Source: Acidimicrobiales bacterium (lineage in GTDB: Bacteria > Actinomycetota > Acidimicrobiia > Acidimicrobiales > CAIXPF01). From it: a DNA stretch of 48,594 bases. Below are positions 21,245 through 39,971 of this stretch, one piece after another. Within the stretch, counting starts at the first letter, position 1. Each line of letters starts with the position of its first letter. The notes beneath the pieces are model-generated. The model was not told the DNA's origin. It did no database searches and saw only the letters and a program-made list of their open reading frames with translations. Both the position numbers and the translations under genes were made by a program. Location of the stretch: contig JBJXGF010000326.1 of the NCBI GenBank assembly GCA_046153015.1, forward strand, positions 1 to 48,594. Reading direction: 5' to 3'.

Positions 21245-21414
21245 TGTGTCGGAGGGGGGACTTGAACTCGCCACAGGCCAGTAGCGTCGAGCGACGGGGA
21301 GCGGCAGCTACCGGCGTTGAGCTGCGGGTTCGCGAGCTTGGCGGTCGCTAGTTGCCGCTGCCCGCCGCTTGATTCCGCTCGCTGCCATTAGCAAATCTAT
21401 TAGCAACCGACACG
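21245..21414. repeat. full-length copy 1 of the ~170-nt repeat family (tRNA-3'-end-like terminus)
   Basis: Starts TGTGTCGGAGGGGGGACTTGAAC and ends ATTAGCAAATCTATTAGCAACCGACAC. Contains GGCAGCTACCGGCGTTGA. It ends 7 nt from the stop codon of the antitoxin gene. Confidence 0.8.
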
Positions 21415-21420
21415 CCGTCG

Positions 21421-21699
21421 TCAGGCGACGTCGAGATAGCGGCGCAGTGCCTCGCGGATGATCTCGCTGGTGGTGGTGTGGTCCTGAACGGCCCGCGCCT
21501 CCACCGCAGCACGTAGTTCGGGGTCAATGCGTACGGGCACCACTTCAGCGGGTCCCGAACCAATCGCCGGTCGCCCGCGGCGGCGTCCCTTCAGTGCCTC
21601 AACGTCGTAGGCGGCGGTCTCCACCTCGGCCGCGAGCTGGCCGAGGTCAGTCTCATTAAGCGTCCGCCCGGTTCGAGTCCGGTAGGTCTTTTCAGCCAT
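21421..21699 (-). CDS. ribbon-helix-helix (CopG/BrnA-like) antitoxin
   Basis: 92 aa. The C-terminus VRIDPELRAAVEARAVQDHTTTSEIIREALRRYL is an RHH domain. It lies downstream of a small toxin-like gene. Confidence 0.8.
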   Translation of the reverse strand: MAEKTYRTRTGRTLNETDLGQLAAEVETAAYDVEALKGRRRGRPAIGSGPAEVVPVRIDPELRAAVEARAVQDHTTTSEIIREALRRYLDVA

Positions 21700-21714
21700 C
21701 AGTTCGATCTCCTC

Positions 21715-21954
21715 TCAGGGGAGCAAGTCGTAGAACACCGGACGCAGCGCCATGGCGTGGATGACCACCTCGACCTCATCGAACTCGAGCCAGATGACCT
21801 CCAGCAGATTCCCCGCCGGGTCCGGCCCGATAGCGAGCACCTTCGGCGGGTCAGCGTCCGGTTCGAGATCGATCGTGGTGAGCGCGTACACGACGGCGTG
21901 CTCGATCGCCTCGCGGCCGACACCGTGCTTAAACGCCGACTGGGCGAACTCCAC
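21715..21954 (-). CDS. small toxin-like protein (BrnT-like arrangement, toxin first)
   Basis: 79 aa. SAFKHGV..AIEHA..LAIGPDPAGNLLEVIWLEFDEVEVVIHAMALR resembles small actinobacterial toxins paired with RHH antitoxins. Confidence 0.6.
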   Translation of the reverse strand: MEFAQSAFKHGVGREAIEHAVVYALTTIDLEPDADPPKVLAIGPDPAGNLLEVIWLEFDEVEVVIHAMALRPVFYDLLP

Positions 21955-22039
21955 ACCCGATTAGTGTAATACGGAACACCCGGCGATGGGAACCAGGGCC
22001 ACGAACCCCAGAATCTCGCGCTGCACCGAGGTCGACTGA

Positions 22040-22372
22040 TCAACAACTCGGTCCGTCCTGATCGGCGTCGCTCTCGTCCTCGCTGAGCGACTCGATACCG
22101 ATCTCGCCGAGAGCACGGACCGACGGCAAGACATGCTCCTCGACCAGCGCGGCAAGCTCCTCGTTGGAGATCCTGCCGTCAGGCATCGCGTCGCGCAATC
22201 GCCTGATCAGCTCCGATCGAAGCTCTGCCTCATCACGAGCGGCGTCGAACTCCAACTGCTTCAGCCCGACTTCAAGCTCTCGCTTCCGCTTCTCGAGTTC
22301 CTTCGACGTGTTGTCGAGCCGCTGACCCGATCCCTCGTACCACTCCTTTCGTTTTGCCGGGACCGCTCCCAC
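22040..22372 (-). CDS. hypothetical coiled-coil protein with an acidic tail; start uncertain
   Basis: KELEKRKRELEVGLKQLEFDAARDEAELRSELIRRL..SLSEDESDADQD. The upstream part of ORF 22040..22693 overlaps a repeat stub (22461-22500), so I prefer the GTG at 22372. Confidence 0.45.
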   Translation of the reverse strand: MGAVPAKRKEWYEGSGQRLDNTSKELEKRKRELEVGLKQLEFDAARDEAELRSELIRRLRDAMPDGRISNEELAALVEEHVLPSVRALGEIGIESLSEDESDADQDGPSC

Positions 22373-22460
22373 CGCCTTGAGAGCGACGCCGAAGACGACA
22401 CCTCGACCCTCGGGGCAACTATCACCACACCGTGGGATTCTGGACCGTCTGCCGGCATCG

Positions 22461-22500
22461 AGCGGCAACCACCGGAAGCACAGGTACGGTGTCGGAGGGG
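22461..22500. repeat. stub of the repeat family: flank-module tail plus the first 13 nt of the left end
   Basis: AGCGGCAAC....TACGGTGTCGGAGGGG. It shares AGCGGCAAC and the 17-mer TACGGTGTCGGAGGG with 48053-48090, and then diverges. Confidence 0.6.
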
Positions 22501-22737
22501 CGAGTTGCACCATAATAAAACCACGAGGCGGGGCTGGCGGCGAGTTCAGGATCGCAGCGTGAGCCAACCCTGCTCGGACGGAGTGCTCGAGACGGTACTG
22601 GCGGACGAGCACGGGCCGCTGAGCCGTCGTAGCGGTCGCGTCTCCATGAAGGACGTCACCTCGCATCGGGAGGGCGCGTGGAAATGCGCTCATCGGACGC
22701 GTACAATGCGGGCTATCGATCGCGTGGAATGGGGAGC

Positions 22738-23997
22738 ATGACTGGCCGCAGCTACATCGAGCGACTCGTCGACCCGTGGCTCGCCGAACTTGTTGCCGAC
22801 GTTCCAGCCATCATGCTCGTTGGGCCTCGCGCCACCGGTAAGACGACGACCGCCGCCAGACTCGCCCGGACCGTCCTCCGCCTCGACGACCGCAACGTCC
22901 GTGCCGCGATCACCGCAGATCCTGACAGCGTTCTACGCGACGCCGATCCGCCCGTCCTCGTCGACGAGTGGCAACTCGCACCCGACGTCCTCGCCGCTAC
23001 GAAACGACTCGTCGACGCCGACCCCTCGCCAGGACGATTCCTCCTCGCGGGGTCCGCCGCCGATGACGCCGGCGCCCAGCAATGGCCCGGTACCGGACGA
23101 GTGATCCGGGTCCCACTCTGGAGTCTCACCCAGCGCGAACTCCACACGAAAGTCGCAGGACCGACGTTCCTCGACCGGATCATCGAGGAGATCGACACCA
23201 CCGGCGAGGCGACGTTCCCGCTGCCCGCCGAACACCCCGACACCGCGGGGTACGTGGACCTCGCGTTGGCATCAGGCTTTCCCGAAGCCCTGGCCCGGAA
23301 CTCGGTCAGAACCAGGTCAGCGTGGCTTGACTCCTACCTCGACCACCTGATCGGCCGCGACGTCGCTCTCCTCACAGACGTGCGAAACCCAGGCAAACTG
23401 CGACGTCACCTTCGAGCGATCGCCGCATCGACGGCCGCGTCACCCACCTTGGCGACACTCGCCGAGGCCTCCGAACTCGACCGGTCCACGATCGAACGGT
23501 ATGACCTCCTCCTCGAACGACTATTCGTCACCGAGCAAGTACCGGCATGGTCCTCGAACCGGCTCACCCGCATCACCCGACGCCCGAAACGCTACATATG
23601 CGACCCCGCGCTCGCAGCCACAGCCCTCGGCGTCGACCGGCGAGCCGTGCTTCGCAACGCCGACCTACTCGGACGGATCATCGACACCTTCGTCGCCGCC
23701 CAACTTCGACCCGAACTCAGCCTCGGCACCCGACCAGCAGCCATGTACCACCTCCGAGAACAGTCCGGCCGGCGCGAAATCGACGTCATCCTCGAACGCC
23801 GCGACGGCGCCATCGTCGCCATCGAAGTAAAGGCCGCGACCGCCGTCGACGAACACGACGCCCGCCACCTCGCCTGGCTCCGCGACCAACTACCCACCGG
23901 CAACGTCCGAGCCGGCCTGGTCCTCTACACCGGAACCCTCGTCCGCCCACTCGGCCGAAACCTCTGGGCAGTCCCGATCTGCACGCTCTGGGCATGA
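22738..23997 (+). CDS. AAA-type ATPase of the AAA_14 + DUF4143 kind
   Basis: Walker A LVGPRATGKTT. VLVDEWQLAPDV (Walker B region). The C-terminal EIDVILERRDGAIVAIEVKA is nuclease-fold-like. I set the start at ATG 22738. Confidence 0.8.
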   Translation: MTGRSYIERLVDPWLAELVADVPAIMLVGPRATGKTTTAARLARTVLRLDDRNVRAAITADPDSVLRDADPPVLVDEWQLAPDVLAATKRLVDADPSPGRFLLAGSAADDAGAQQWPGTGRVIRVPLWSLTQRELHTKVAGPTFLDRIIEEIDTTGEATFPLPAEHPDTAGYVDLALASGFPEALARNSVRTRSAWLDSYLDHLIGRDVALLTDVRNPGKLRRHLRAIAASTAASPTLATLAEASELDRSTIERYDLLLERLFVTEQVPAWSSNRLTRITRRPKRYICDPALAATALGVDRRAVLRNADLLGRIIDTFVAAQLRPELSLGTRPAAMYHLREQSGRREIDVILERRDGAIVAIEVKAATAVDEHDARHLAWLRDQLPTGNVRAGLVLYTGTLVRPLGRNLWAVPICTLWA

Positions 23998-24263
23998 CAG
24001 CTGACCCTTCGTGAGCCACAGCCGAGATCTGTCCCCGACCGTTCGACACGCCTCGTGAACCTGGACGGGAGCGGGGGTAGGACGAAAGTGCCCAACGAAC
24101 CAGTCAAGCGGGGTGACCGAGGTCTCGAATCGGGCGACCTCAACGCGCCCTTCGCCGAGCCGCCGCTCTGGCCGCGCACCGACTTGAACCTCCACCGGTG
24201 ACAGCAACGACCTGACCAGCCATGCTGAGGATCCCGTTGACCTCAACCGTGGGGGGTCAATTC

Positions 24264-24378
24264 GGTGTCGGAGGGGGGACTTGAACTCGCCGCACGCCAC
24301 CGGCGGTAAGCGGCAGGGAGCGGCAGCTACCGGCGTTGAGCTGCACGTTTCTGGTGGTCGTGGTCGCTGGATGCCGCT
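24264..24378. repeat. copy 2 of the repeat family (left two-thirds only)
   Basis: GGTGTCGGAGGGGGGACTTGAACTCGCC...GGCAGCTACCGGCGTTGAGCTGCAC...GGTCGCTGGATGCCGCT. Similarity stops abruptly at 24378. Confidence 0.8.
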
Positions 24379-24384
24379 CCCTCA

Positions 24385-24702
24385 TCGGCCCAGCTGATCT
24401 CGTATTCGTCTTGGGGGCGCTCGACGTAGCTGGAGACAATCTGAGCGCCGACCTGGTCGCGCCGGTGCCGGTCTATGAGCCGTAGCAGTCCGAGCCGTAC
24501 CGCTTCGGAGCGGCTGGCGCAACGCCGGCGGCGACGAGTTGGTCGACCTCTCGAACACCTGGACGTCCAACCCGAGGGTGTCGCGCAGCCGGTGGTTCAT
24601 GAACAGCAGACTCCCCCGTGCCGCTCGCGCTCCGACGGGTCTCCGACGCGCCAGCCACCCTGCTCTTTGCGTCAGGAAACGGTAAACCCCCGCCACACCC
24701 AC
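24385..24702 (-). pseudogene. LysR-type regulator, N-terminal HTH remnant with frameshifts, divergent from the TauD gene
   Basis: YRFLTQRAGWLARR....LRDTLGLDVQVFERSTN, followed in another frame by QLVAAGVAP, follows the LysR pattern (..F..v.e.gs..AA..L..LE..LGv.LFeRs.r...LT.AG). No effector domain is present. Confidence 0.4.
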
Positions 24703-24740
24703 ATGCGGCGCGAGACTGGTGCGGACATGGAGGTGCAGCG

Positions 24741-25649
24741 ATGGAACGTCCGATGATCGAGACGACGGGCGCGACCTTGGGAGCGGTGGTGAGCGGCGTT
24801 CGGCTCGCCGCGCTCGAGGGAGAGGAGTGGGACGCGATCCACGAAGCGTTCCATCGCCACGGTGTACTGGTGTTCCCCCGCCAGCACCTGAGCGAAGTCG
24901 AACAAATGGCGTTCGGGCAGCGCTTCGGAGCGCTCTCCATCGAGATCCTGCTCCTGTCGAACCGCCGTGAGGACGGCAACCTTCTCCCAGCCGACGACCC
25001 GCTCATCACCTTGCTCCAAGGCAACGAGGGCTGGCACACCGACAGCTCGTTCAAGCGCCTGGCCGCCAAGGCGTCGATCCTGTCTGCTCGCGAAGTGCCG
25101 AGCGATGGGGGTGAGACCGAGTGGGCCGATATGCGCGCCGCCTACGACGCCCTCGAGCCCGACCTACGGGCGCGTGTCGAGGGCCTGCAGGCACACCATT
25201 CGCTGGACCACTCCCAAGCCAAGGTTGGCGCGACGTCGGCGTCGACCGCCGCCGCCCTTCAGGCCCTGGCCTACCGCGGGGCACGGACGGCCGATCCGGG
25301 CGCCACAGTGACGCCGAGCAACGGGGCCGACGCGGGCCGGACGGACCCGCTGCGCCCGCTGGTGAAGTTCCATCCGGTGACCGGGCGGCCCGCGCTGTTC
25401 ATCGGTCGCCACGCCTACGGCATACCCGGGCTCGAAGCTTCGGAGTCGGAACGGCTGCTCGAGGAGTTGCTGGCTTTGGCGTGCCAGCCGCCCCGGACGT
25501 ACCGGCATCGTTGGGCCCCGGGAGACGTCGCTATCTGGGACAACCGGTGTGTGCTGCACCGGGCTCGCCCTTACGACACCAACCAAGGTCGGGTCATGGT
25601 CCACACGCGGGTCGCCGGGGACCCTGCTACAGAGCTCGCTACGGCCTGA
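24741..25649 (+). CDS. TauD/TfdA-family Fe(II)/2-oxoglutarate dioxygenase
   Basis: MERPMIETTGATLGAVVSGVRL.., EGWHTDSSF (HxD), RVMVHTRVAG. GGAGG lies 7 nt upstream of ATG 24741. Confidence 0.9.
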   Translation: MERPMIETTGATLGAVVSGVRLAALEGEEWDAIHEAFHRHGVLVFPRQHLSEVEQMAFGQRFGALSIEILLLSNRREDGNLLPADDPLITLLQGNEGWHTDSSFKRLAAKASILSAREVPSDGGETEWADMRAAYDALEPDLRARVEGLQAHHSLDHSQAKVGATSASTAAALQALAYRGARTADPGATVTPSNGADAGRTDPLRPLVKFHPVTGRPALFIGRHAYGIPGLEASESERLLEELLALACQPPRTYRHRWAPGDVAIWDNRCVLHRARPYDTNQGRVMVHTRVAGDPATELATA

Positions 25650-25789
25650 AGGTCACCCCGAACCGAACACCGCCCCGCTGGTGTCCTGTCAGGCAGAGCA
25701 GCGTCTTGTGTGCCCGTCCCGAGAGTTTCGGCGAGGGGCAATGCCACAACCCGTGCGAGAAAGGTAGCAGTTGCCGGCTTTGCTCCTCT

Positions 25790-25909
25790 GCTCGCGCCCA
25801 GCGCCTTCGCCGCTTCGAACACGAGGGTAATCCCACTCGTCAACATGACCATTGAAGCGATGAAACCCGCCGCGACGGTCGAGACGGAGAATTCCTTGAA
25901 CAGTGACAC
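25790..25909 (-). pseudogene. BenE-family N-terminal fragment (~40 codons)
   Basis: MSLFKEFSVSTVAAGFIASMVMLTSGITLVFEAAKALGAS parallels MSILKDFSLSTVTAGFVSALVGLATGVTLIFEAANRLGAT of the intact BenE. The remainder of ORF 25571..25909 is unrelated. Confidence 0.5.
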
Positions 25910-25968
25910 TCGGGCAAGCTACGGCGCGGTGCGCCGAAACGTCAGCGAGGCCCGGCGGCCCGGGGCGC

Positions 25969-26619
25969 TCACCAGTGGTCCCAGTGGAGGATCTCCTGCA
26001 ACGGTCGCCGCGCCGCTGGCCGGAAGTCGGTGCCGATGGTGTACGCGGTCAAGATGTTGGCGATCTGGGTGACGCCGGCGGGGAGCTCGATGATGGCGTT
26101 CGCTTCGTCGTTGAAGAACGTGTGCATGTTGGTCCAGCACGTGCCCAACGCACGGGACCGTGCCGCGAGCATGAAGCTCCACGCCGCCGGGATGACCGAG
26201 CCCATCAGCCCGCCCATGAACTCGGGACGGACCCGCTCAAGCGTGCCCTCGAAACAGGGGAACACGTGCAACGGCACCTCTTGGACGTGCGCTGCCAGGT
26301 ACTCGAGCGACGCGATGATCGGCGCTGCGGCGCGCTGCTGGCCGGCGTCGTGATAGCTCAGGTTGTGCACGGCGATGGGCAACGTGCGATAGATCTCCAG
26401 CCCACGACGAAACAGCTCCCCCAATGCGCGACGGCGCTCGGGGTCCGACACCACCACGAAGTGGAACTGCTGTTGGTTCGAACCGGACGGGGCTTGCTGG
26501 GCGAGCGCTATGCAGCGCTCGATGACCTCTCGCTCCACTGGTCGACGCAGATCGAGGCGCTTGCGCACGGTACGAGTCGTTGAGAGCAGATCGTCGGGCG
26601 TGAGGTCGAGTATCTCCAT
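25969..26619 (-). CDS. nitroreductase family protein
   Basis: 216 aa. TTRTVRKRLDLRRPVEREVIERCIALAQQAPSGSNQQQFHFVVV is a typical nitroreductase N-terminus. Confidence 0.85.
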   Translation of the reverse strand: MEILDLTPDDLLSTTRTVRKRLDLRRPVEREVIERCIALAQQAPSGSNQQQFHFVVVSDPERRRALGELFRRGLEIYRTLPIAVHNLSYHDAGQQRAAAPIIASLEYLAAHVQEVPLHVFPCFEGTLERVRPEFMGGLMGSVIPAAWSFMLAARSRALGTCWTNMHTFFNDEANAIIELPAGVTQIANILTAYTIGTDFRPAARRPLQEILHWDHW

Positions 26620-26759
26620 GCTGAAATCATGCTCGCCGCTTGAGGAGCAGCGGAGCTCGGACCAGCCATGACTTGGGATCGCCAGCCTTCACCGGTGACG
26701 TCCTGCTCGGTACGCAGCAGTGCCGTAACCGCCGCCGTGATGGTCTCGGACCGGTCGCT

Positions 26760-26951
26760 CGGCTGGTTGCGCTACCTCGACCGCAAGGCGCACGTTGCAG
26801 TCGTAGGCGACGCGGGGCGATCGAATCGGGTCTGGCTGCGTTCGCACACATCGGGGTCACCGACTTCGTGGCCGCCGGGCCCCCGCGGGAAGCATCGGCC
26901 ACGGCCACCGTCGAGCTGTGGGCGTCCCTCGCAGCCGCCGGCCCGCGCTGA
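26760..26951 (+). pseudogene. possible LLM-family C-terminal remnant (frameshifted)
   Basis: ..KAHVAVVGDAG in one frame and IESGLAAFAHIGVTDFVAAGPPREASATATVELWASLAAAG in another resemble the C-terminal ..vvGdp..v...l.af..aGvtdfv.. end of LLM oxidoreductases. Confidence 0.3.
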
Positions 26952-26991
26952 CGCGCACCGGCGCAGTAATCGAGGCAGGCGCCGTGGGCGG

Positions 26992-27462
26992 TCAGTCGGT
27001 GAGCACGGGCGGGTCGAGGACGCCGACCTTGGCGCACTGGTGGCGGTAGCGCGACAGCACGCTGGCCGCGTCGGTCACCGACGCGACCGAACCATCGGGT
27101 GCCAGGTTGAGGTTCGACCCGTAGATCTGGAACCACACATCGGTGATCTCGGTGTTGTCAGCGGGCACGTTGAGTGTGTGGATCGACCCGGCGGGCTCGA
27201 AGAGGAACGAGCCAGCGCGGTTCACGTACTCGCTCTCCAGGTAGTGCCACGCACCGGCCAGCGTGTAACCGAAGACCTGGCCGGTGTGCTTGTGGGTCTG
27301 CACGAGCGTCCCCGGGGCGAACCGGTTCCGCACGATCCACAACCCCTCTCGCTCCTTGGCCACGAGCAGCTTCATCTCGCCGCCGAAGCCGTCCGGCACC
27401 CAAGGAAGGTCGGCCTCGCCGCGATGGATGGCCGACGGTGCAGTCTCGAATGCGATCGCCAT
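26992..27462 (-). CDS. cupin-domain dioxygenase (2,4'-dihydroxyacetophenone dioxygenase-like)
   Basis: LPWVPDGFGGEMKLLVAKEREGLWIVRNRFAPGTLVQTHKHTGQVFGYTLAGAWHY..FLFEPAGSIHTL. The start is ATG 27462, or upstream at 27501. Confidence 0.75.
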   Translation of the reverse strand: MAIAFETAPSAIHRGEADLPWVPDGFGGEMKLLVAKEREGLWIVRNRFAPGTLVQTHKHTGQVFGYTLAGAWHYLESEYVNRAGSFLFEPAGSIHTLNVPADNTEITDVWFQIYGSNLNLAPDGSVASVTDAASVLSRYRHQCAKVGVLDPPVLTD

Positions 27463-28037
27463 GCTCAGGACGGTAGCCCGCGATCCGCGGTCCACCGGCA
27501 ATGGCAGCGACGAACGCTACAGGCCGCAGCCGCGGGGTTCAGGACAGCGGCGGGCGAGGATGCGGGGCTCCTTGTTTGGCATCTGCGAGGGGCCGGGCCG
27601 AAGCCCGACCCTGTACCCCAGGCGCGTCGCGCCGGCAATGGCGGCGAGATCGAAGCGCCATTGGGCGGCCGGGTTGGCGATATCGGACGTCACCCAGCCG
27701 AACGAACGCCGCTCCCCGTAGCGGTCGACGAAACAGGGAACATCCCACTGGCCGATCGCCTCGTGGGTGTTGGAGCCAGCCGCGTGCACGACCGGTGGCG
27801 CGGCGGACAAAGGGTGATTGCCCGGTCGACAACGTGGCGGGCGCGGCGTTCCTTTGCGAGTCGCCCATCCCGATCGGGTCCGGTGCGATACGGACAAGCT
27901 GGCCAACCCGGCAGTATCGAAGGGCGCGGTGCCGTCGCTGGGGATGGGCAGCAAACTCGTCAAAGGCCCCCTGCCCGCTCGTAGGGCCTGGCCCCACCTC
28001 GGCCTCCTCGATCGGTGACGTCCACTACTGTCCAGCC

Positions 28038-29468
28038 ATGAGTGACGACGTGGCATTTTGGCCCGCCCATCGCCAAGCAGCGGCCATCCGTAGCCGAGAG
28101 CTGTCCAGCGTGGAGCTGCTCGAGCACTATCTCGGTCGCATTGAACGCCACAATCCCGCCATCAACGCGGTGGTCACCCTGGCGGAGGAACCGGCGCGGC
28201 TAGCGGCACGCGCCGCCGACGCAGCCACCGTGGCCGGCGGGGACCTCGGCCCGTTACACGGCGTGCCCCACACGATCAAAGACGCCATCGAAACGGCCGG
28301 AATCCGTTCAACGGGCGGGGCGGTGGAGCTGACCGACCACGTGCCCACCCACGATGCGCCCGCAGTGGCCTCGTTGAAGCGGGCCGGCAGCATCGTGTTC
28401 GGCAAGACCAACCTGCCGCGCTGGTCCGGAGACGGGCAGAGCTACAACGAACTGTTCGGCGTCACCAACAACCCCTGGGATCTCGGCCGCACCCCGGGAG
28501 GGTCCTCCGGCGGCGCGGCAGCGGCAGTCGCCGCCGGGCTCACCAGCTTCGAGGTCGGCACCGACATCGGCGGCTCGGTGCGCATGCCATCCACGTTCAG
28601 CGGCATCTGGGGGCACAAACCGAGCTTCGGTCTCATCCCCACCCTCGGTTATCTCGACAGCGTCGGCGGCGGACACATCGAAGCGGATGTCAACGTGTTC
28701 GGGCCAATGACCCGTTCGGTGGACGACCTGGAACTCCTGCTCGACATCATGGCCGGACCGAGGCCCGACCGCGCACCCGCATGGCGGCTGGAACTGCCTG
28801 CCCCTCGCCACACCCGGCTGGGCGATTTCCGGGTCGGGGCCTGGCTTGATGACCCAGCTTGCCCGATCGACCACGAAGTACGCGCCGTGCTGGAGCGGGT
28901 CGTGGACGAACTGGAGGGGGCCGGTGTGGCGGTGGATCGTACCGCCCGCCCATCGATCGACTTCGCCGCGGCAGCGAAGTTGGGTATCCAACTGATCAGC
29001 GTTGCCGGCAGCGTCAGCATGAGCGACGACGAGATGGCCGACCTGGCGGAGAAGTCACGCGGCGCCGCCAACCTCGCCCAACGCCACCACACCTGGCTGG
29101 CACGCGACCTGCGCCGAACGGAGCTGCGCGCCGCGTGGGCGGAGTACTTCCGTTCCTACGACATCCTGCTGTGCCCGGTGAGCGTGACCTCGGCGTTCCC
29201 GCATCAGACGAGTGGCAGCTGGCGCGACCGCACACTGATGGTGAGCGGCGTGGAGCGGCCCTACACCGACCTCGTCGACTGGACCGCGATGGTGGGCATG
29301 GCCTACCTGCCGGTGACGACACCGCCGTTGGGTCAAACCGCCAGCAGTCTGCCGGTCAGCGTGCAGGTCGTGGGGCCTTACTGCGAAGACCGCACCGCCC
29401 TACACTTCGCACGCCTCCTGGCCGAGGTCACCGGGGGTGGCTACAGCCAGCCTCCTGGCTGGGTCTGA
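28038..29468 (+). CDS. amidase (amidase-signature family)
   Basis: LHGVPHTIKDAIETAG, GGSSGGAAAAVAAG and GTDIGGSVRMPS are AS-family motifs. I set the start at ATG 28038, inside the long ORF 27501..29468. Confidence 0.9.
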   Translation: MSDDVAFWPAHRQAAAIRSRELSSVELLEHYLGRIERHNPAINAVVTLAEEPARLAARAADAATVAGGDLGPLHGVPHTIKDAIETAGIRSTGGAVELTDHVPTHDAPAVASLKRAGSIVFGKTNLPRWSGDGQSYNELFGVTNNPWDLGRTPGGSSGGAAAAVAAGLTSFEVGTDIGGSVRMPSTFSGIWGHKPSFGLIPTLGYLDSVGGGHIEADVNVFGPMTRSVDDLELLLDIMAGPRPDRAPAWRLELPAPRHTRLGDFRVGAWLDDPACPIDHEVRAVLERVVDELEGAGVAVDRTARPSIDFAAAAKLGIQLISVAGSVSMSDDEMADLAEKSRGAANLAQRHHTWLARDLRRTELRAAWAEYFRSYDILLCPVSVTSAFPHQTSGSWRDRTLMVSGVERPYTDLVDWTAMVGMAYLPVTTPPLGQTASSLPVSVQVVGPYCEDRTALHFARLLAEVTGGGYSQPPGWV

Positions 29469-30657: not shown

Positions 30658-30942
30658 ATGAACCGAGGTCAGGACAACGCGCTGGCGGTGGCGACCTTCG
30701 CCGGCCATCCGGTGGTGCACGTGGGCCGGGGCAACACCGCAGGCATGGCCCACGATCTCGGTCCGTTGGTGATCAGCGGCGACAACCTCAGCGCCACCAA
30801 GGCCCGGTTGTTGCTGATGGCGGCAATGCTGAAGCTCGGCGCCTTGCCGGCGGCGGTAGATCCTCTGGCGCCGACGCGCCAGGAGATTCGGGACAGCCGC
30901 CGTTCGGTGGCCGGCTTCCAGCGGATCTTCGACACCCACTGA
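30658..30942 (+). CDS. hypothetical small protein (may be a C-terminal fragment of a larger enzyme)
   Basis: 94 codons from ATG 30658 (MNRGQDNALAVATFAGHPVVHVGRGNTAGMAHDL..). This is the only protein-like part of the long ORF 29614..30942. Confidence 0.35.
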   Translation: MNRGQDNALAVATFAGHPVVHVGRGNTAGMAHDLGPLVISGDNLSATKARLLLMAAMLKLGALPAAVDPLAPTRQEIRDSRRSVAGFQRIFDTH

Positions 30943-30960
30943 TCCCGCCCGACAACTCGT

Positions 30961-31821: not shown

Positions 31822-31946
31822 CCCCGCAGTCTCGCACCGATCTAGCCCGAAACGGGGCGGAAGGGGGCGGACTGGCCCGGCGAGAACAGCGCAGCCGAGG
31901 AAGGTGGAAGGGGGTGAGCCGCTCCCGCTCTTCACCACCTCTAGCC

Positions 31947-32207
31947 TCAGGTTCGGCAGCCAGCGCTGCGGAACACGCGGGCGAACGCCTCAACTCGGCC
32001 CTTGCCGTGGCGCACAAGCCGGCCTGAATGCTGGTTGGTCTGCTGGTCGTCGGCGATCGTCTGCTCGCCATTGACGATCACTGCGTGGTAGCCGGTGGCC
32101 GTTCGGATTCGGCGCCACTCGCCTCCAGGAAGATCGTGCACGATGACGTTGGGGCCGACCGCCAACGCAGCGGGGTCGAACACACCCGTCAGCACCCCGA
32201 ATCTCCT
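31947..32207 (-). pseudogene. C-terminal remnant of an amidohydrolase (D-aminoacylase-like)
   Basis: GVLTGVFDPAALAVGPNVIVHDLPGGEWRRIRTATGYHAVIVNGEQTIADDQQTNQHSGRLVRHG matches the ..FDP..v.D....dlP.G..R....a.Gi..V.VNG..v..dg..tg...GrlLR tail. No catalytic domain lies upstream. Confidence 0.45.
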
Positions 32208-32386
32208 AGCTCGAGGGAAAGCACATCCACGTCGCGGCGTGAGCAGCCTCCTCAGCTTCAACTTGAGGGAGTCGAGGTCTTGAAACGGTCCTGAACGTGG
32301 TGTCTGGCCGACGCGCCTCGCCAATCGGGCCGAATGGGCAAGGTTTCGACGTGCCATAGTCGCAGGACCAGACCAAAGGGGGAGAC

Positions 32387-33175
32387 ATGACGTTCTGCGC
32401 GATGGCTCGTTGTCCGCGCACCGGTGCAGTCGGTGCTGCAGTGGCGACGTTCTCGGTAAACGTTGGAAGGGTGTCGCCGCTCTACACCGGTCTCACGCCC
32501 CGTTTCGAAGCGTCGGGTGGCATGATCTTCGTGCATTCGTCGGTCAGCCTCGGTACCGGTCAGGTGGGCCTCGATGCCTTGCGCTCCGGTCGCGATCTCG
32601 ATGAGGTCATCGATGCGATGGCGAGTCATGACTCGCATTGGGCCTGGCGCCAGGTGACGGTGATGCGGCCGAGCGGCGAGGTTCGGGTGGTGACCGGTAC
32701 AGAGTCGGCAGGGCCGTGGGCCGGTGATCGCAGCGGCGATGGGTGGACCGTGTCGGGAAACGCGCTGCGCGGGGCTGGGGTCGTGGATGCGATGGCAAGC
32801 GCTGTTGTCGATGACGGTGCTGCGCTGTCGGAGCGCCTGATGAGAACACTGGAGGCCGGCCGAGCGGCCGGCGGCCAGGCCGATCCGAAGACCGGTGAAC
32901 CGCTGACCGAACTGTCAGCCGTGCTCCTCGTCTTCGACGGGGAACGCGCCGTGCCCCGTGTCGACCTTCGCATCGACTACGACCCGCTGGCCGTGCCTCG
33001 CCTTCGAGCTCTCCACGACTACACAGGCCCGGTGGGCGACTACTACGACGCTATGGAGCTGTGCCCCGACGCAATGATCTCGTACCTGCGGGAGCGCGGT
33101 GTCTACGACGCAATGCCGCACTTCCGCCAGTTTCGCGACCCCAAGACACTGACGCTGCGGGGCTATCCATCCTGA
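32387..33175 (+). CDS. DUF1028-family (Ntn-hydrolase-like) protein
   Basis: MTFCAMARCPRTGAVGAAVATFSVNVG matches the MTFSIvARcp.tG.lGvAvaS N-terminus of DUF1028 proteins. 262 aa. Confidence 0.8.
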   Translation: MTFCAMARCPRTGAVGAAVATFSVNVGRVSPLYTGLTPRFEASGGMIFVHSSVSLGTGQVGLDALRSGRDLDEVIDAMASHDSHWAWRQVTVMRPSGEVRVVTGTESAGPWAGDRSGDGWTVSGNALRGAGVVDAMASAVVDDGAALSERLMRTLEAGRAAGGQADPKTGEPLTELSAVLLVFDGERAVPRVDLRIDYDPLAVPRLRALHDYTGPVGDYYDAMELCPDAMISYLRERGVYDAMPHFRQFRDPKTLTLRGYPS

Positions 33176-33290
33176 CACCTGTTGGCGCCCGTGTCAGGCA
33201 ACTGGGTGGAGCCGTTCCGGTCCGCCTTTCGTGCGCCGCGGCGCGTAGTTCGGTGGCTCGCCGGGTCGTATCCCCTTCAGCCACTTCAAC

Positions 33291-33680
33291 ATGGTTCTCA
33301 CGCTTGGCTGCACGGCACCACTGGGCGCCCCGGCGTGGCGGGCCATCGACGAGTTCTATCCCCTTGGGTCGGGTGGCCACTGGGTCCTCGCGAACGACTT
33401 CAGTGAACCGTCAAACATCGCCGCCGTGCTCGGTGAACGGGGCTACACGCCCGTCGAGACGTGGGACCGTATCGTGGCGCAAGGGGCGCAGCCCGCGCTG
33501 TGGCGACCGTACGCACCCGGAGCCGAATTGGTCACGTCGAGCAACGCGACAGAATGGGCCGGCTTCGTTCGGAACTGCTTTGGGATGCCCTCGGCCATCA
33601 CGGCGTGGCTCCTGGCGTTGAGCGACCGGAACGGATGGATCCATGGGGATCGACGCGCCAGTTCCCGGGATCTGAACGGA
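33291..33680 (+). pseudogene. possible GNAT-acetyltransferase fragment that degenerates after ~125 codons
   Basis: SNIAAVLGERGYTPVETWDRIV..ATEWAGFVRNCFGMPSAITAWLLALSDRNGWIH is protein-like. After it the ORF becomes Q/R/P-rich nonsense, and GNAT-core-like bits appear in other frames. Confidence 0.3.
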
Positions 33681-33943
33681 GACGCACACGCAGTCGCTCC
33701 CGAGGTTGCGCAGACGCGCCACCGCCGCCAACCTCAGCACCACCAAACGCAACAAGGCCGACGAGGCAGCCAGATACCTACTCAACAAAGGCGAGCTACC
33801 TCGACTACTCAACCGCGCTCGCCGCAGGCTCGGAGACGTTCGACTGGTTGGCCAGTGCCATCCGCGGTCTACGAGCGGTGGGCGGAGTGGGCGGCCGCTA
33901 GGGTGACGGCGCTCTAGCCCACCGATTGCGAGGATATCTCGGG

Positions 33944-34762
33944 ATGCCGATCACCGTCGAGGTCACCTACCCGGCTGACGGCGTCGGCCTGATCGCCTTC
34001 GCCGACCCGCCCCGCAACTTCGGCAACAGCGAGCTGGCCGAGCGCCTGTTGGACGCCGTCGCCGAGCTTGGCCGGGCCGGGTGCCGGGTGTTCGTGCTGG
34101 CCTCCGATACGCCCGGCTACTTCATCGCCCACTGGTCGTTACAGTTCATCGTCGACCGGCAGGCCGCGCTGGAGGCCAACGGCCATATGGCTCCGCCGCC
34201 GGCGCCTCGGATCTTCGAGTCGATATCGGCCACACCGATGATCTCCATCGCTGCCAACAACGGGCAGGCCTGGGGTGGCGGCGCGGAGCTGTCCTGGGCG
34301 TGTGATCTACGCATCGCGGCCAGCTCGGCGACCTACGGGCAGCCCGAGGTGGGCCTCGGCATCATCCCCGGCGCCGGGGGAACGACGCGCCTCGCCCGTC
34401 TGATCGGGCCGACGAAGTGCCTCGAGATGATCCTCGACGGTCGGCCGATCACCGCGGCCGAAGCGCTGCAGCTGGGCGCCATCAACAAGTTGGTACCCGA
34501 CGCGGAGCTCCGTCAGGCCGCCATCGATTGGGCGGCTCATATCGCCCGCTGGCCGGCCTGGTCTTTGGAGGCCTGCAAGCGCAGCTTCTACGAAGGGCGG
34601 GACCTTCCGCTCGAGGTCGCCGGTCGCAACGAATCGCAGATCTTCGCCAGCATGGCCCGCCGGGCCGACTCGATCGCGCTGATGCGTGAGGTCCAGGCCC
34701 GCTACGACGCCGGCCTCGATTCCTACGACGCCATCGGCCTGCCCCGCTCCGGCTCCGCCTGA
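33944..34762 (+). CDS. enoyl-CoA hydratase/isomerase family protein
   Basis: GVGLIAFADPPRNF.., GQAWGGGAELSWACDLRIA, GLGIIPGAGGTTRL. ATG 33944 follows GAGGA. Confidence 0.9.
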   Translation: MPITVEVTYPADGVGLIAFADPPRNFGNSELAERLLDAVAELGRAGCRVFVLASDTPGYFIAHWSLQFIVDRQAALEANGHMAPPPAPRIFESISATPMISIAANNGQAWGGGAELSWACDLRIAASSATYGQPEVGLGIIPGAGGTTRLARLIGPTKCLEMILDGRPITAAEALQLGAINKLVPDAELRQAAIDWAAHIARWPAWSLEACKRSFYEGRDLPLEVAGRNESQIFASMARRADSIALMREVQARYDAGLDSYDAIGLPRSGSA

Positions 34763-34825
34763 ACCGCATCCGCCCGCCCGGCCTGTGACGATCCCGCCAG
34801 GGCGGGTCACGGCTACGCTCGCCGC

Positions 34826-35137
34826 ATGTACAAGTGCCTGGTGAACGGGAGTATCGACGAGGGCGCTCGGCGTGTCGTCGTCGACGGTTTGCGTGCGCTC
34901 ATGGCCACCCGCTTCGGCATCGACGACGTCACGGTCGAGTTCATCGAGATTCCCGAGGGCCGCTGGTTCACCGCCGGGAAGCCGTCGCGTGCGTCGATGG
35001 TGTTGGGTACGGTGCCGGTGGGCACCCCCCAGGACGAACGGGTAGCGGTGATGGACGCCATCGCCCGGCTGTTCGCCGAGGCCGCCGACACCGACTATCA
35101 CGACGTGATGGTCTCCGCGCCCGACCGGAAGGGATGA
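34826..35137 (+). CDS. tautomerase-superfamily-like protein lacking Pro-1
   Basis: 103 aa. It resembles the next gene in layout (YKCLV..IDEGARRVVVDGLRALM..VEFIEI) but starts MYK rather than MP. Confidence 0.5.
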   Translation: MYKCLVNGSIDEGARRVVVDGLRALMATRFGIDDVTVEFIEIPEGRWFTAGKPSRASMVLGTVPVGTPQDERVAVMDAIARLFAEAADTDYHDVMVSAPDRKG

Positions 35138-35140
35138 CGA

Positions 35141-35491
35141 ATGCCGCTGTATCGCTGCACGACACCGACAGGAACGCTGGACGACGCCAAGCGCAAGGCG
35201 ATCGCCGAGGCCATCACGAGTGTCCATTGCGAGGTCACCGGCGCGCCGCCAACGTTCGTACATGTGCAGTTCTTCGACGGCCCCGAGGCGACGATCCACG
35301 GCGGGATCCGAGCGGGTCGCGACGCGCAGCTCACCGAACGCCTCATCGAGCGCTGTGTAGGCGAGGTGGGCGCCATCGCCGGCGTGGCGTTCTCGATGCG
35401 GACGTCGACCACCAACGCCTCGTGGATCTTCGAAGGCGGGCGGGTCTTTCCCGAACCGGGCCACGAAGCCGTCTGGCTCCAGCAGCGCTGA
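35141..35491 (+). CDS. tautomerase family protein (putative oxalocrotonate-tautomerase-like)
   Basis: MPLYRCTTPTGTLDDAKRKAIAEAITSVHCEVTGAPPTFVHVQFF has the Pro-1 start and the conserved TGAP block. Confidence 0.7.
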   Translation: MPLYRCTTPTGTLDDAKRKAIAEAITSVHCEVTGAPPTFVHVQFFDGPEATIHGGIRAGRDAQLTERLIERCVGEVGAIAGVAFSMRTSTTNASWIFEGGRVFPEPGHEAVWLQQR

Positions 35492-35577
35492 TCGAATCGG
35501 GGCGAGGCCGCAGCGGCGGCGCCCGGCCGATTCGGCGCCGATTCGTCGGTAGGGTTTGGTCTCTGTGCGACGCATCT

Positions 35578-35814
35578 TGCGGACCAACGACGACGGCAGT
35601 CGGCTGCGCGGTCGCCGACCAGCAGGTCCCCAACGGCTATTACCACCTCGACCACATGATCACCTCCGCTGCGCACCGTGGCACTGAGATCGGCCTCTGT
35701 GGCACCTGCTTGGACGCACGAGGGATCACCGACGCGTTGAACGTCCCCGACGCCCACCGCTCCAGCCTCGAGGTCACGGACTGGACCCTCTGGGCCGACA
35801 AGACCATCACCTTT
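35578..35814 (+). pseudogene. DsrE/DsrF-like protein, C-terminal two-thirds without a start codon
   Basis: AVGCAVADQQVPNGYYHLDHMITSAAHRGTEIGLCGTCLDARGITDA..WTLWADKTITF fits the DsrE-like pattern (GYYn.e.m...G.ev..CGtCmdARGi...Adkv.tF). There is no in-frame ATG/GTG/TTG upstream, and no stop after TITF. Confidence 0.5.
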
Positions 35815-35819
35815 GACCC

Positions 35820-36040
35820 GCTGATCCGTCTACTCGCGCGACGCGGACTGCGTTTCGAGTTGGAGGAGGCGGAGGGAGGTGGGGTTGACGAAACGTTCCC
35901 AATCGTCCAGACGCACCTGGTGCGCGAAGCGGTGGCATCGACCCGGATCGAAGGAACGCTCGCCTCGATCGTCGAGGTCTTCGATACCGATGGGTCCGAT
36001 GCCGGGCTCACCGGCCACATGGAGGTGGACTTCGCGTTCG
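35820..36040 (+). pseudogene. Fic-family N-terminal (Fic_N-like) fragment fused in frame to the DsrE remnant
   Basis: PIVQTHLVREAVASTRIEGTLASIVEVFDTD matches the ..l.r.EAvaSS.IEGT.as..e.. motif. No HxFx(D/E)GNGR core follows. Confidence 0.4.
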
Positions 36041-36561
36041 GCAGGAGTTGCGAGAGACCGTCAAGCCGGCCGAGCGGAGATTCTGCCTCGCCCAGCAGCG
36101 TCGCGGTGTCCGCGCTCAACACCAAGGGGCGCGGTCGCCGCCCCGGCTGGAAGGCCCAATGTTCGCGGCGTCCCGGCGTCGGCGCACCTCCCCCAACCGG
36201 TGGCGTTCATACCGGTCTCGATCCACCCGTTCTACCCAGCGTCTCTAACGAAATTGGACGACCACGTCAGATCAGAGACGAACGTCGACCGCGCGCCGTC
36301 GACCCGACGCTGTCGGGTCGACGGTGAAGCAGTCGTTGGCGCAGATCTCCTGTGCGGTCGAAGGCCGGCCAAGTCCACGACGAGTGGGTTGGGTCCAGTG
36401 GGATACGCCGCCTCGAAGCTGTCGCTGAGTGGCATCAGCGGCCGCCCTTGGCGTCGACGACCCGCTAGGCGAAGCGCTCATCCGGCAAGGGGCGGGCGCA
36501 GCCGGCAACGGGGGCGCTGGCTGGTCTACGCTCGGGTCGCGCACCCGAGGGGAGGGCCGTT

Positions 36562-37821
36562 GTGAGCGAGGTCGGTGACGCTACCGCGAGCCTCTACGAG
36601 CGGCTGATCGGGGAGGATCGGGTGTCGGGGCGGTTGTACGTCGAGCCGGCCGTCTTCGAGCGCGAGTTGGAGCGAATCCACCATGGGGGTTGGGTGTTCG
36701 TCGGCCACGAGAGTGAGGTGGCTGCACCCGGCGAATTCGTCACTCGGCTGCTCGGTCGCCAGCCGGTGGTGCTGACCCGCGACGAGGCCGGCGCGGTGCG
36801 GCTGTGTTCGAACCGCTGCCCGCACCGCGGTGCCACGGTTTGCGGCCTTGATCGAGGCCAGAGCCGGTACTTCCGCTGCCCGTACCACGCCTGGACCTTC
36901 GACAACGCCGGAGCGTTGGTGGCCCTGCCCGGCGAGGAGGGCTTCGGGCCGACGTTCGATCGCGCCGCGCACGGGCTGGCGCCGGTGCCCCGCATGGACA
37001 GCTTTCGGGGATTCGTGTTCGGGAGCTGGTCGCACGACGTGCCGACGCTGGCCGAGCACCTCGGCCGGTCTGGCGAGATGATCGACCGTTTGTGCGACCT
37101 GTCGCCGGTGGGGGAGATCTCGCTGCGGGCCGGGTGGCTGCGCCATCGCATTCGGGCCAACTGGAAGATGGCCGCCGAGAACGTGTGCGACTTCTACCAT
37201 CCGCCGATCACCCACGCTTCCTCCGGCCTGGCCGCCGGCCTGCCTCCGGGCTATTTCAGCGACGCTTTCGGTGGCGTGACGCGGGATCTGGGCGGCGGCC
37301 ACGGCGAGGTGGACTACCGGCCGGCTCTGGCCGGCGCGACGCCCAAACCGCTGGAGAGCTACCAAGGCCCGCGGCGTCAACACCTCGACCTACTGGCGGC
37401 GCGCGACGGCGCGGCGGCCGCAGTGGCACGGCTGCGGGTCGGCCCGCCGCACGGGTTCATCTTTCCCAACCTGTTCATCGCCGAGGAGAGCATCTTCGTC
37501 ATCCAGCCGGTCAACGTGGCGGAGATGACCCACCTGCAGACGCCGGTCATGTGGGTGGGCCTGCCTGAGGAGATGCACCGTCGCCAGCTGCGGCGCTTCG
37601 AGGGCGGCTTCGGACCGGGCGGTATGGTCGAACCCGACGATGCGGCGACGTGGGAGCGGATCCAGCTCGGCTTGCAGGCAGGCGAACCCGAATGGGTGAT
37701 GCTGGAACGTGGCGTGGAACGAGACGCCTCGGGGGTGGGGCGAGCGCTGGACGAGATCGCCATGCGCGGCTTCTGGCGCCACTACCGCTCACTGATGACC
37801 AACGGGGCGGCGGCGAGATGA
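36562..37821 (+). CDS. aromatic-ring-hydroxylating dioxygenase, Rieske alpha subunit
   Basis: GTG start. Rieske motif CSNRCPHRGATVC..FRCPYHAWTF. 419 aa. ATGA overlap with the beta-subunit gene. Confidence 0.9.
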   Translation: MSEVGDATASLYERLIGEDRVSGRLYVEPAVFERELERIHHGGWVFVGHESEVAAPGEFVTRLLGRQPVVLTRDEAGAVRLCSNRCPHRGATVCGLDRGQSRYFRCPYHAWTFDNAGALVALPGEEGFGPTFDRAAHGLAPVPRMDSFRGFVFGSWSHDVPTLAEHLGRSGEMIDRLCDLSPVGEISLRAGWLRHRIRANWKMAAENVCDFYHPPITHASSGLAAGLPPGYFSDAFGGVTRDLGGGHGEVDYRPALAGATPKPLESYQGPRRQHLDLLAARDGAAAAVARLRVGPPHGFIFPNLFIAEESIFVIQPVNVAEMTHLQTPVMWVGLPEEMHRRQLRRFEGGFGPGGMVEPDDAATWERIQLGLQAGEPEWVMLERGVERDASGVGRALDEIAMRGFWRHYRSLMTNGAAAR

Positions 37822-38327
37822 GCGCCATCGAGGATTTGCTCGAGCAGCAGCGCGTCGAGCAGTTGCTGTTTCTCGAAGCCCGGCTCATCGACGAGCGCCG
37901 CTTCGCTGAATGGGAGGCCCTGTGGGTCGACGAGGGGATCTACTGGGTGCCGGCCAACGGTGAGGACACCGATCCCGACACCGATGTGTCACTCATCTAC
38001 GACAACCGATCCCGCATGCACAACCGGGTCGAGCGCTATGCGGGTGGTAAAGCGCTTTCCCAGCAGCCGCCACCGCGCACCGTCCACCTCGTCGGCAACG
38101 TGACCACCATCGAGCCTGCCACCGCCGGTGCCGTTGGTAGTGACGTGCGCCGGTGGGTCCACTCGACGGTGCAGGTGGCCGAGTCCCGCCCCGGCGTGCG
38201 CATCGACTGGGTCGGCCGGGTCACCCACCACCTCGTCGAACGCGACGGCGAGCTGCGCATCGCCTTCAAGAAGGTCATGCTCGTCAACAACGACCAGGAA
38301 CTGACCACCATCGACTTCCTGCTCTGA
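37818..38327 (+). CDS. aromatic-ring-hydroxylating dioxygenase beta subunit (NTF2-like)
   Basis: 169 aa from ATG 37818. VEQLLFLEARLIDERRFAEWEALWVDEGIYWVP..LIYDNRSRMHNRVERY is typical of beta subunits. Confidence 0.85.
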   Translation: MSAIEDLLEQQRVEQLLFLEARLIDERRFAEWEALWVDEGIYWVPANGEDTDPDTDVSLIYDNRSRMHNRVERYAGGKALSQQPPPRTVHLVGNVTTIEPATAGAVGSDVRRWVHSTVQVAESRPGVRIDWVGRVTHHLVERDGELRIAFKKVMLVNNDQELTTIDFLL

Positions 38328-38572
38328 ACCGCCTGGCCCGGCTGCGATCCTCGAGCTGGCTGACCACCGGCGGCGGCGCCCAGGGACATCGATGAGCGCA
38401 CGGCCGGTGCGGCCGTTGCCCTCGACGGCCGGCCACAGCGGACGGCGCGCATGGCGGCTGCAGTACCAGCCGGTATTCGCAGCGTCGAGTTCGGCTGGAG
38501 TCACGGGCGGGTGCGGCCCAGCCGGTGGATGACCGTGAGCGTGCCGGAAACGCGTCGGCGTCCAACACGCCA

Positions 38573-38699
38573 CGGGATACCACAGCCCCCCAGTCCGACA
38601 GATCGACCCCGAGAGCCGGAGTGGCCACAGATCGTGGGATTCGTTGTCGTCGACCGGCAACGAACGGCAGGGAGCGGTAACGAGTGGACACGAGCAACC
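38573..38699. repeat. flank module X (copy A), directly abutting the left end of repeat copy 3
   Basis: GGGATACCACAGCCCC..GTCCGACA..TCGACCC..CCGGA....GACCGGCAACGAACGGCAGG is colinear with 47953-48078. The exact 16-mer GGCAACGAACGGCAGG is at 38656-38671 and at 48056-48071. Confidence 0.65.
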
Positions 38700-38872
38700 G
38701 GTGTCGGAGGGGGGGACTTGAACCCGCCCCAGGCCAGTAGCGGCAAGCGGCAGGGACCGGCAGCTACCGGCGTTGAACTGCACATTTCCGGTGGCCGTGG
38801 TCGCTGGTTGCCGCTTGTTGCCGCTCGATTCCGTTGCCTGCCATTAGCAAATCCATTAGCAACCGACACACC
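38700..38872. repeat. full-length copy 3 of the ~170-nt repeat family
   Basis: GGTGTCGGAGGGGGGGACTTGAACCCGCCCC...GGCAGCTACCGGCGTTGAACTGCAC...TTGCCGCTTGTTGCCGCT...CCATTAGCAAATCCATTAGCAACCGACACACC. Confidence 0.8.
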
Positions 38873-39944: not shown

Positions 39945-39971
39945 GATCGATCGGCAGCAGCGGGCGAGAAG

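Follow-up and report, generated by a model that had tools for sequence, protein, structure and literature searches.

The 48,594-nt stretch analyzed here (hereafter the window; contig JBJXGF010000326.1 of an Acidimicrobiales genome) carries three long copies of a ~170-nt repeat, and each of these copies is very probably an attachment (att) junction of integrative elements that target the tRNA-Leu(GAG) gene at its 3' end. The initial annotation of the repeat named three options, namely att sites, a structured non-coding RNA (ncRNA) and a miniature inverted-repeat transposable element (MITE), and chose none of them. Att junctions of tRNA-targeted cassettes are a known kind of feature; the family reported here is undescribed but widespread. 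The assignment draws on the identity of one end of the repeat to a tRNA end, the fixed geometry and phasing of the adjoining sequence, the repeat pairs on both arms of the site, the adjacency of integrase genes, the switching of junction partners, and the recurrence of cassettes in other contigs. The copies in the window bound integrase-less cassettes, which presumably have partly decayed since insertion.

The long copies lie at 21245-21414 (copy 1, full), 24264-24378 (copy 2, followed by divergence), and 38700-38872 (copy 3, full), where the initial annotation had placed them. All three contain the 18-mer GGCAGCTACCGGCGTTGA, which occurs exactly three times in the window vs. 0.09 occurrences expected by chance. 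The full copies start with GTGTCGGAGGGGGG(G)ACTTGAAC and end with ATTAGCAAATC(C/T)ATTAGCAACCGACAC; these termini and the short repeats in the interior are as originally described. We identified two additional pieces, a left end alone at 22489-22510 (GTGTCGGAGGGGCGAGTTGCAC, with three mismatches to the left-end pattern; 0.00 expected by chance) and a right end alone at 47882-47912. All five pieces share the same strand, and the G+C content of the window is 66.9%. Copies 1 and 3 are 79% identical over the arm and are mutual closest relatives in our sample, while the identity of the window copies to their nearest relatives elsewhere is 61-66%. A BLAST search with copy 3 against plasmid and phage collections returned no match.

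The first 22 nt of the repeat are the reverse complement of the tRNA-Leu(GAG) segment that starts in the T-loop and extends through the first C of CCA, since the same 22-mer constitutes the 3' end of called tRNA-Leu genes in related genomes. The scan for this 22-mer, in which each species was represented by one genome, revealed at least 120 loci, nearly all of them in Acidimicrobiia or other Actinomycetota metagenome-assembled genomes (MAGs) and mostly with one match per genome. In 29 of the 33 loci tested, the 22-mer is the 3' end of an ARAGORN-called tRNA-Leu (28 with the GAG anticodon and one with AAG). Among the 122 matches listed, the tRNA 5' acceptor sequence follows the 22-mer in 98, and the other 24 mostly continue into non-tRNA DNA, including a window-like arm in about a dozen. 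The 5' side of tRNA-Leu shows conserved synteny with tpiA, secG, and a gene for a solute-binding protein. The resemblance to a tRNA 3' end noted initially is thus more than a likeness: it is an exact match to the 3'-terminal 22 nt of tRNA-Leu(GAG), and the repeat contains a T-arm sequence because it is identical to a real tRNA gene. The repeat had been judged not to be a tRNA gene, and this agrees with ARAGORN, which detects no tRNA or transfer-messenger RNA (tmRNA) gene in the window. A longer identity with tRNA-Leu(GAG), ~53 nt reaching the anticodon loop, was observed in three viral contigs (L124, L125, and L126; loci outside the window are designated by L numbers), where the block is followed by the contigs' own arms, e.g., CCGTTGACAAATCCGTTGACAAG in L124; at least two crossover locations are therefore in use within tRNA-Leu(GAG).

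Beyond the tRNA-derived core, ~150 nt constitute a conserved arm of the phage attachment site (attP) type. Across the family, this arm contains up to five CGGYA motifs with a 10-nt period (peaks at +36, 46, 56, 66, and 76), followed by up to four inverted TRCCG motifs with the same period (+106, 116, 126/127, and 137). It is terminated by a module that consists of the direct repeat pair ATTAGCAA, 11-12 nt apart at ~141 and ~152 nt from the core start, and the CGACAC tail. The scan of metagenomes for the window-type module, using the pattern TGCCRTTAGCAA N4-5 TTAGCA N2-3 CGACAC, identified 111 contigs, and in about 75 of them the core is located exactly 136 or 137 nt upstream of the module; the scan of viral contigs gave only chance matches in AT-rich DNA. 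Genomes and metagenomes pooled together contain 77 distinct units, 63 of which are 171-172 nt long. The arms of the genome loci also end with a direct repeat pair, usually together with CGACAC, and its sequence varies (e.g., GTTAGCAA, GTTTGCA, GATGACAAG, and GTGTCCAA), as it does between elements in general (e.g., GTGACCA, GTTGACA, and GCGGACCA). Of the originally suggested decayed tRNA-derived att sites, the att origin is therefore retained and the decay is not, as the ~150 nt represent a length-conserved attP arm that contains phased repeats resembling binding sites and is found in 77 units. The arm repeat pair was also considered as a -35-like promoter element and rejected, as it has no -10 partner and no promoter-like site was found.

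In six related genomes, a tyrosine-integrase open reading frame (ORF), in some cases fragmentary, adjoins the intact tRNA-Leu gene, with a distance of 60-110 nt or more between its end and the core; in L089, another catalytic ORF stops 13 nt short of the core. The integrase-side flank carries a direct repeat pair too. The repeat motif of the window is located ~90 nt from the intact tRNA core in L041 and L049, and the full module, including CGACACCCC, is present at both ends of a 6-kb island that abuts an intact tRNA in L009. The L146 locus encodes a 513-aa integrase with the Phage_integrase, Arm-DNA-bind_4, and SAM_3 domains (Pfam); its stop codon is followed by the module, the core, the 136-nt arm, a second module, and the AbiEi/AbiEii cargo, beyond which lie another module and, 192 nt further, a variant core. 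In the viral contig L123, the core is flanked left and right by identical pairs, GCGTGGGACCACGGTGGGACCA, and the neighboring integrase has this same set of three domains. An integrase adjoins the site in L146, L170, and L123, and the presence of Phage_integrase and Arm-DNA-bind_4 was confirmed in the L146 and L123 proteins. In L146, L205, L009, and L123, the core has arm-type repeats at fixed distances on either side, and the same repeat-pair module occurs in the same orientation on the other arm in relatives, directly after the tyrosine integrase. On this other (P') arm, L146 (5200-5300), L191 (2225-2320), and L238 share a conserved Shine-Dalgarno-like sequence followed by ATG (GAAAAGGAGGGTGAAATGCAGTCACCCGTCC...), which would open an ORF of ~26 codons toward the core and may represent either a leader peptide or a chance occurrence.

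The same tRNA end was also found next to genes of another kind. In 13 related genomes (L010, L032, L035, L092, L102, L110, L111, and others), the gene of a ~550-aa large serine recombinase lies just downstream of tRNA-Leu(GAG) and reaches its 3' end, so that this end is used by two unrelated families of recombinases. Most of these genes end 20 nt into the tRNA, with the stop codon TGA and the C-terminus ...VGGGT encoded by the tRNA end, and the L102 protein contains the Pfam domains Resolvase, Recombinase, and Zn_ribbon_recom. The large serine recombinase as the enzyme for the arm family studied here was set aside, because the arm module adjoins tyrosine integrases.

The strongest evidence for reading the copies as att sites is the junction polymorphism. 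The loci L221, L176, L183, and L155 have a near-identical left flank and module and diverge right after GTGTCGGAGGGG: L221 and L176 proceed to tRNA-Leu-like sequence (both contigs end ~50 nt further), and L183 and L155 proceed to a second (type-2) arm. In L146, whose module region is ~80-90% identical to those of the other four loci, GTGTCGGAGGGG is followed by the arm studied here. One half-site is thus joined to alternative partners at a fixed switch point, which is what site-specific recombination predicts, and the fixed switch after GTGTCGGAGGGG maps the exchange of strands to the 12 nt at the tRNA's 3' terminus. The type-2 core and arm of L183 are the partner of a P' arm. The 22489 piece of the window was considered as a decayed core and this option was dropped, since other contigs contain this variant repeatedly, as a right-arm type of its own; the piece belongs to the recurrent variant GTGTCGGAGGGGCGAGTT.., i.e., a junction with a different arm type, and the variant core GTGTCGGAGGGGCGAGTTTAAC is found in L146, L155, L186, L196, and L238. 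The features of the window are summarized in Table 1.

Table 1. Att-site components and adjoining cargo genes located in the window.
Feature	Coordinates	Strand	Description and basis
Core, copy 1	21246..21267	-	Reverse complement of the last 22 nt of tRNA-Leu(GAG), T-loop to first C of CCA; exact pattern match
P-type arm, copy 1	21268..21414	+	Aligns with 76 other units of equal length class; ATTAGCAA pair at 21387-21394 and 21399-21406; CCGACAC at 21407-21413
Cargo of first cassette (cassette A)	21421..21954	-	RHH (CopG-type) antitoxin, 21421-21699 (Pfam RHH_1), and 79-aa partner ORF, 21715-21954
Variant (type 2) core	22489..22510	-	GTGTCGGAGGGGCGAGTTGCAC; invariant left half GTGTCGGAGGGG with a different right arm
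Core, copy 2	24265..24286	-	Exact tRNA-Leu 3' end
Truncated arm, copy 2	24287..24378	+	Alignment; last ~55 nt, including the ATTAGCAA pair, lost
P'-arm-like remnant left of copy 3	38654..38700	+	CGGYA at -47, -37, and -27 from the core
Core, copy 3	38701..38723	-	tRNA-Leu 3' end with one extra G
P-type arm, copy 3	38724..38872	+	CGGYA at +39, +46, and +56; TRCCG at +63, +107, and +117; ATTAGCAA pair at 38843-38850 and 38855-38862; CCGACAC at 38863-38869
First cargo right of copy 3	39159..40592	+	HTH_17 protein (excisionase/MerR-type helix-turn-helix), 39159-39944, and 206-aa ORF, 39972-40592 (Pfam)
Orphan arm right end	47882..47912	+	CATTGGCAGATCCATTAGCAACCGACACACC; core and remaining arm lost

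The P'-arm-like remnant next to copy 3 is similar to the portion of the P' arms closest to the core in L146, L186, and L238. The truncation point of copy 2 abuts the 3' end of a minus-strand frameshifted pseudogene similar to ribbon-helix-helix (RHH) antitoxins (24385-24620; ...REVDQLVAAGVAP / SRSEAVRLGLLRLIDRHRR...), as seen in three-frame translation. At 24178-24200, ~70 nt left of copy 2, the sequence CACCGACTTGAACCTCCACC resembles the T-loop half of the core (GGACTTGAACCCCC) and may be a remnant of another tRNA-derived site.

By analogy with phage lambda and mycobacteriophage L5, a heterobivalent tyrosine integrase would bind the ATTAGCAA pairs with its N-terminal domain and the core with its catalytic domains, whilst the phased CGGYA array is probably the site of a putative DNA-bending accessory protein. 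Strand exchange within GTGTCGGAGGGG would rebuild the tRNA and leave the core and arm at the distal junction; the copy of the tRNA 3' end would then stay at the far end of the integrated element, and repeated insertion would build arrays on the same strand. The integrase-less cassettes of the window, carrying a toxin-antitoxin pair, an ATPase, and a helix-turn-helix (HTH) protein with a helicase-nuclease, were presumably inserted by an integrase acting in trans. The presence of the same arm and toxin-antitoxin cassette in different contigs may be taken as indirect support for such excision and integration in trans.

Several observations weigh against the att-junction reading of the window copies. 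No remnant of a tyrosine integrase or serine recombinase was detected in the window by tblastn with ORFs from the related loci, so that no integrase with an arm-binding domain adjoins the copies, and they are therefore orphan junctions and not a complete element. The intact tRNA is also not in the window, and thus the anchor of the array is not seen. The left (P') side of the window copies is without the ATTAGCA module, the pair being present on the right (P) side only, and the 24.4-38.7 kb interval (14.4 kb) contains ordinary-looking metabolic genes. The motif variants are mirrored (CGGTA occurs with TACCG, and CGGCA with TGCCG), which could mean that a hairpin matters. Finally, integrase binding and recombination at the site, as well as the accessory protein on the CGGYA array, are predictions from the lambda/L5 paradigm.

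The segments bounded by the copies in the window are 1.2, 1.8, 14.4, and 9 kb long. The 1.2-kb segment encodes the RHH antitoxin and its 79-aa partner. Four other contigs (L134, L184, L191, and L140) align colinearly with 21351-21976, the nucleotide identity being ~70%, and in them the same toxin-antitoxin gene pair directly follows the arm; in L191, the arm and the toxin-antitoxin unit lie within a 1.6-kb cassette between two cores. By this comparison, the first cassette of the window, formed by the arm and the toxin-antitoxin pair, is clearly a mobile unit. The only clear gene of the 1.8-kb segment, which extends from the variant core to copy 2, encodes an AAA_14/DUF4143 ATPase (22678-23997, + strand). 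The 9-kb segment encodes the HTH_17 protein, the 206-aa ORF, and an 1831-aa helicase-nuclease. Relatives of the former two, at 32-41% amino acid identity, were found by tblastn adjoining each other in L220, and a relative of the 206-aa ORF in L239; both contigs carry the repeat unit, the cargo matches being assigned by contig and not by position relative to the module. The 1831-aa ORF (41273-46768, - strand) is located between copy 3 and the orphan arm end and contains DUF4011, the superfamily-1 helicase domains AAA_11/AAA_12, a restriction-endonuclease-like MTES_1575 domain, and DUF3320. Its product resembles helicase-nucleases of the defence type and has a relative in L223 at 41% amino acid identity.

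In the window and the 111 metagenome contigs together, 28 core-to-core intervals were counted; their lengths range over 555-14436 nt, with a median of about 2.6 kb, and an integrase match was obtained in 0 of the 28. These intervals are thus att-bounded segments without a recombinase. Most carriers are cassettes of 0.6-5 kb without integrase or phage genes. The cargo between cores (L131, L152, L163, L170, L212, L222, L185, and others) is mostly represented by toxin-antitoxin pairs, including RelE/HigB-like toxins with XRE antitoxins, PIN/VapC, and AbiEi/AbiEii, and closely resembles the cassettes that stabilize chromosomal integrons. All-against-all ORF clustering revealed no conserved neighbor gene beside the arms in the genome loci, and for the metagenome loci it returned mostly spurious high-GC ORFs and toxin-antitoxin genes. 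Since most carriers are short and integrase-less, there is room for a further, more tentative proposal, which we consider possible rather than probable: the repeat may mark an integron-like gene-capture system in Acidimicrobiia. In such a system, every one of the short integrase-less cassettes, which mostly contain toxin-antitoxin and defence genes, would have a compound att site of lambda type, ~365 bp long and composed of an arm-site pair, the phased CGGYA array, the tRNA-derived core, a mirrored array, and another arm-site pair, and a single heterobivalent tyrosine integrase would act in trans to stack the cassettes, using as targets both tRNA-Leu(GAG) and the att sites that resident elements provide.

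Four other explanations of the repeat were weighed against the att-junction reading. The first retains the recombination site and proposes that it is active as folded single-stranded DNA, like an integron attC site, with the CGGYA and TRCCG halves forming a long imperfect hairpin. Both strands of copies 1 and 3 indeed fold into a long hairpin (z-score to -5.5 for the + strand of copy 1), the motif variants are mirrored by position (the column pair 62/123 is U-A in 38 and C-G in 29 sequences), and the cassettes are short and lack an integrase like integron cassettes. However, when the fold of copy 3 was laid on the alignment of 77 units and compared with shuffled alignments, the hairpin was not kept between the motifs: 59.1% of cells pair vs. 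58.8% in shuffles, double-sided pair changes number 23 vs. 23.1, and the pairs that are well kept are those located in the CGGYA and TRCCG motifs. The interrupted ~14-bp helix suggested in the initial annotation is likewise not kept across the family. The RNAalifold consensus on the 77 units falls to -14.5 kcal/mol, the ends of the repeat do not match the integron R''/R' consensus, and the integrases with arm-binding domains together with repeat pairs on both arms represent a double-stranded lambda-type architecture; hence we regard the folded-DNA explanation as improbable.

Even less probable is a ~170-nt structured ncRNA, which would be either a minus-strand tRNA-like RNA with acceptor-like GUGUCGG/CCGACAC pairing and a T-arm, or a plus-strand hairpin RNA. 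The pairable termini, the genuine T-arm sequence, the stable single-copy folds predicted for both strands, and a covariation score slightly higher than in shuffles (0.097 vs. 0.089) would fit such an RNA. Nevertheless, a conserved RNA fold has at most weak support, as the RNAalifold covariation term is about 0 (+0.47 on 8 arms), the paired cells are at shuffle level, and the terminal GTGTCG/CGACAC pairing is invariant and therefore uninformative. ARAGORN is negative, as is the Rfam check proposed for the copies: the window has no match at gathering thresholds, and at E<=10 copies 1 and 3 give only miRNA-hairpin noise far below threshold, with no match to a tRNA or tmRNA model. Moreover, the arms contain no promoter-like or terminator-like sites, the T-arm is accounted for by identity to a real tRNA gene, truncated copies retain either end alone, and the CGACAC module is found across the core as well, in a position where the proposed terminal pairing is impossible.

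A non-autonomous MITE-like transposon with 7-8-nt terminal inverted repeats is very unlikely. The short inverted repeat at the ends, the ~170-nt size, and the several copies are compatible with it, and a 7-nt inverted repeat is present; however, its left part is the tRNA end and its right part is the CGACAC tail of the arm module, and these are not transposon ends. In the window and in all 21 multi-copy contigs the features lie on one strand, with none on the other, so that dispersal in both orientations is not observed. At the left, the repeat invariably begins with the tRNA-Leu 3' end, no target-site duplications flank copies 1 and 3, no transposase is associated with the repeat, and the change of junction partner occurs at one fixed position, which is the pattern of site-specific recombination. 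Plain local segmental duplication without function, which the initial annotation named as the remaining option if further copies, covariation support, and a transcript were all lacking, is the least likely of all: the 79% arm identity of copies 1 and 3, the closest in the sample, speaks for it, yet the unit, with equal length and motif phasing, occurs in more than 100 unrelated contigs and several species genomes, and the flanking cargo differs among the window copies, that of copy 1 being common to other contigs.

The att-junction reading replaces an unclassified repeat or possible ncRNA with a concrete testable identity and avoids its annotation as an RNA gene or MITE. The points of interest are the spread of the family, its regular geometry, and the fact that most carriers are short integrase-less cassettes. 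The family is present in at least 111 metagenome contigs and several species-level genomes. Its unusually regular geometry (the 171-172-nt unit, the 10-bp phasing, and the mapped exchange point) makes it a tractable model for the assembly of arm-binding integrases on their sites in a poorly studied actinobacterial class. The many integrase-less toxin-antitoxin and defence cassettes bounded by these sites suggest how flexible genomic islands of environmental Acidimicrobiia may expand, and the core and arm sequences can be used as markers of island boundaries in MAGs.

Several known systems share features with the att junctions described here. Like integron cassettes, the cassettes of this family are short and promoter-poor, often carry toxin-antitoxin genes, and form one-strand arrays with about one integrase per array; like integron attC, each cassette has its own imperfectly palindromic recombination site. 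In contrast to attC, the site has no R''/L''-L'/R' consensus (its ends are GTGTCGG and CCGACAC instead of R''(RYYYAAC)...R'(GTTRRRY)), the predicted heterobivalent integrase uses arm sites, integration is directed to a tRNA 3' end, and the family does not conserve the hairpin. No IntI-type integrase was seen, though no IntI-specific hidden Markov model search was made; arm-binding domains are present in the integrases that accompany the site. Cis-mobilizable elements (CIMEs) and recombinase-less pseudo-staphylococcal cassette chromosome (pseudo-SCC) elements are att-bounded segments without a recombinase that accrete next to the att site of a recombinase-encoding element. These elements have short att repeats, whereas each cassette of the present family has a ~365-bp compound site (module, ~190 nt, core, 136 nt, and module).

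The comparison with the tyrosine integrases of actinobacteriophages covered mycobacteriophage L5, Giles, and members of Cluster K, including CrimD and Pixie. In their attP sites, pairs of 11-bp arm-type sites flank a tRNA/tmRNA-derived core, a stem-loop is found between the core and the arm sites, and the arm-site sequences differ between related integrases (PMC3203893). The sites described here share with them the tRNA-derived core, the flanking arm-type repeat pairs, the stem-loop between the core and one of these pairs, arm-site sequences that vary among related integrases, and an integrase with an N-terminal arm-binding domain. They differ in the target, which is tRNA-Leu(GAG) of Acidimicrobiia, in the longer arm, in the additional 10-bp-phased array of up to five direct and four inverted CGGYA motifs, and in that most carriers are 0.6-5-kb cassettes with no integrase and no phage genes. 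The tycheposons of Prochlorococcus are tandem elements separated by partial tRNAs, with degenerate remnants and partial tRNAs scattered through the island (10.1101/2020.12.28.424599). The window resembles tycheposons and other additive islands in having four partial tRNA-Leu ends on one strand, and its array fits the model of successive integration at a tRNA gene. The host phylum, integrase lineage, and target tRNA differ from those of tycheposons; in the present family, every partial tRNA is joined to a long conserved arm, and most units lack an integrase.

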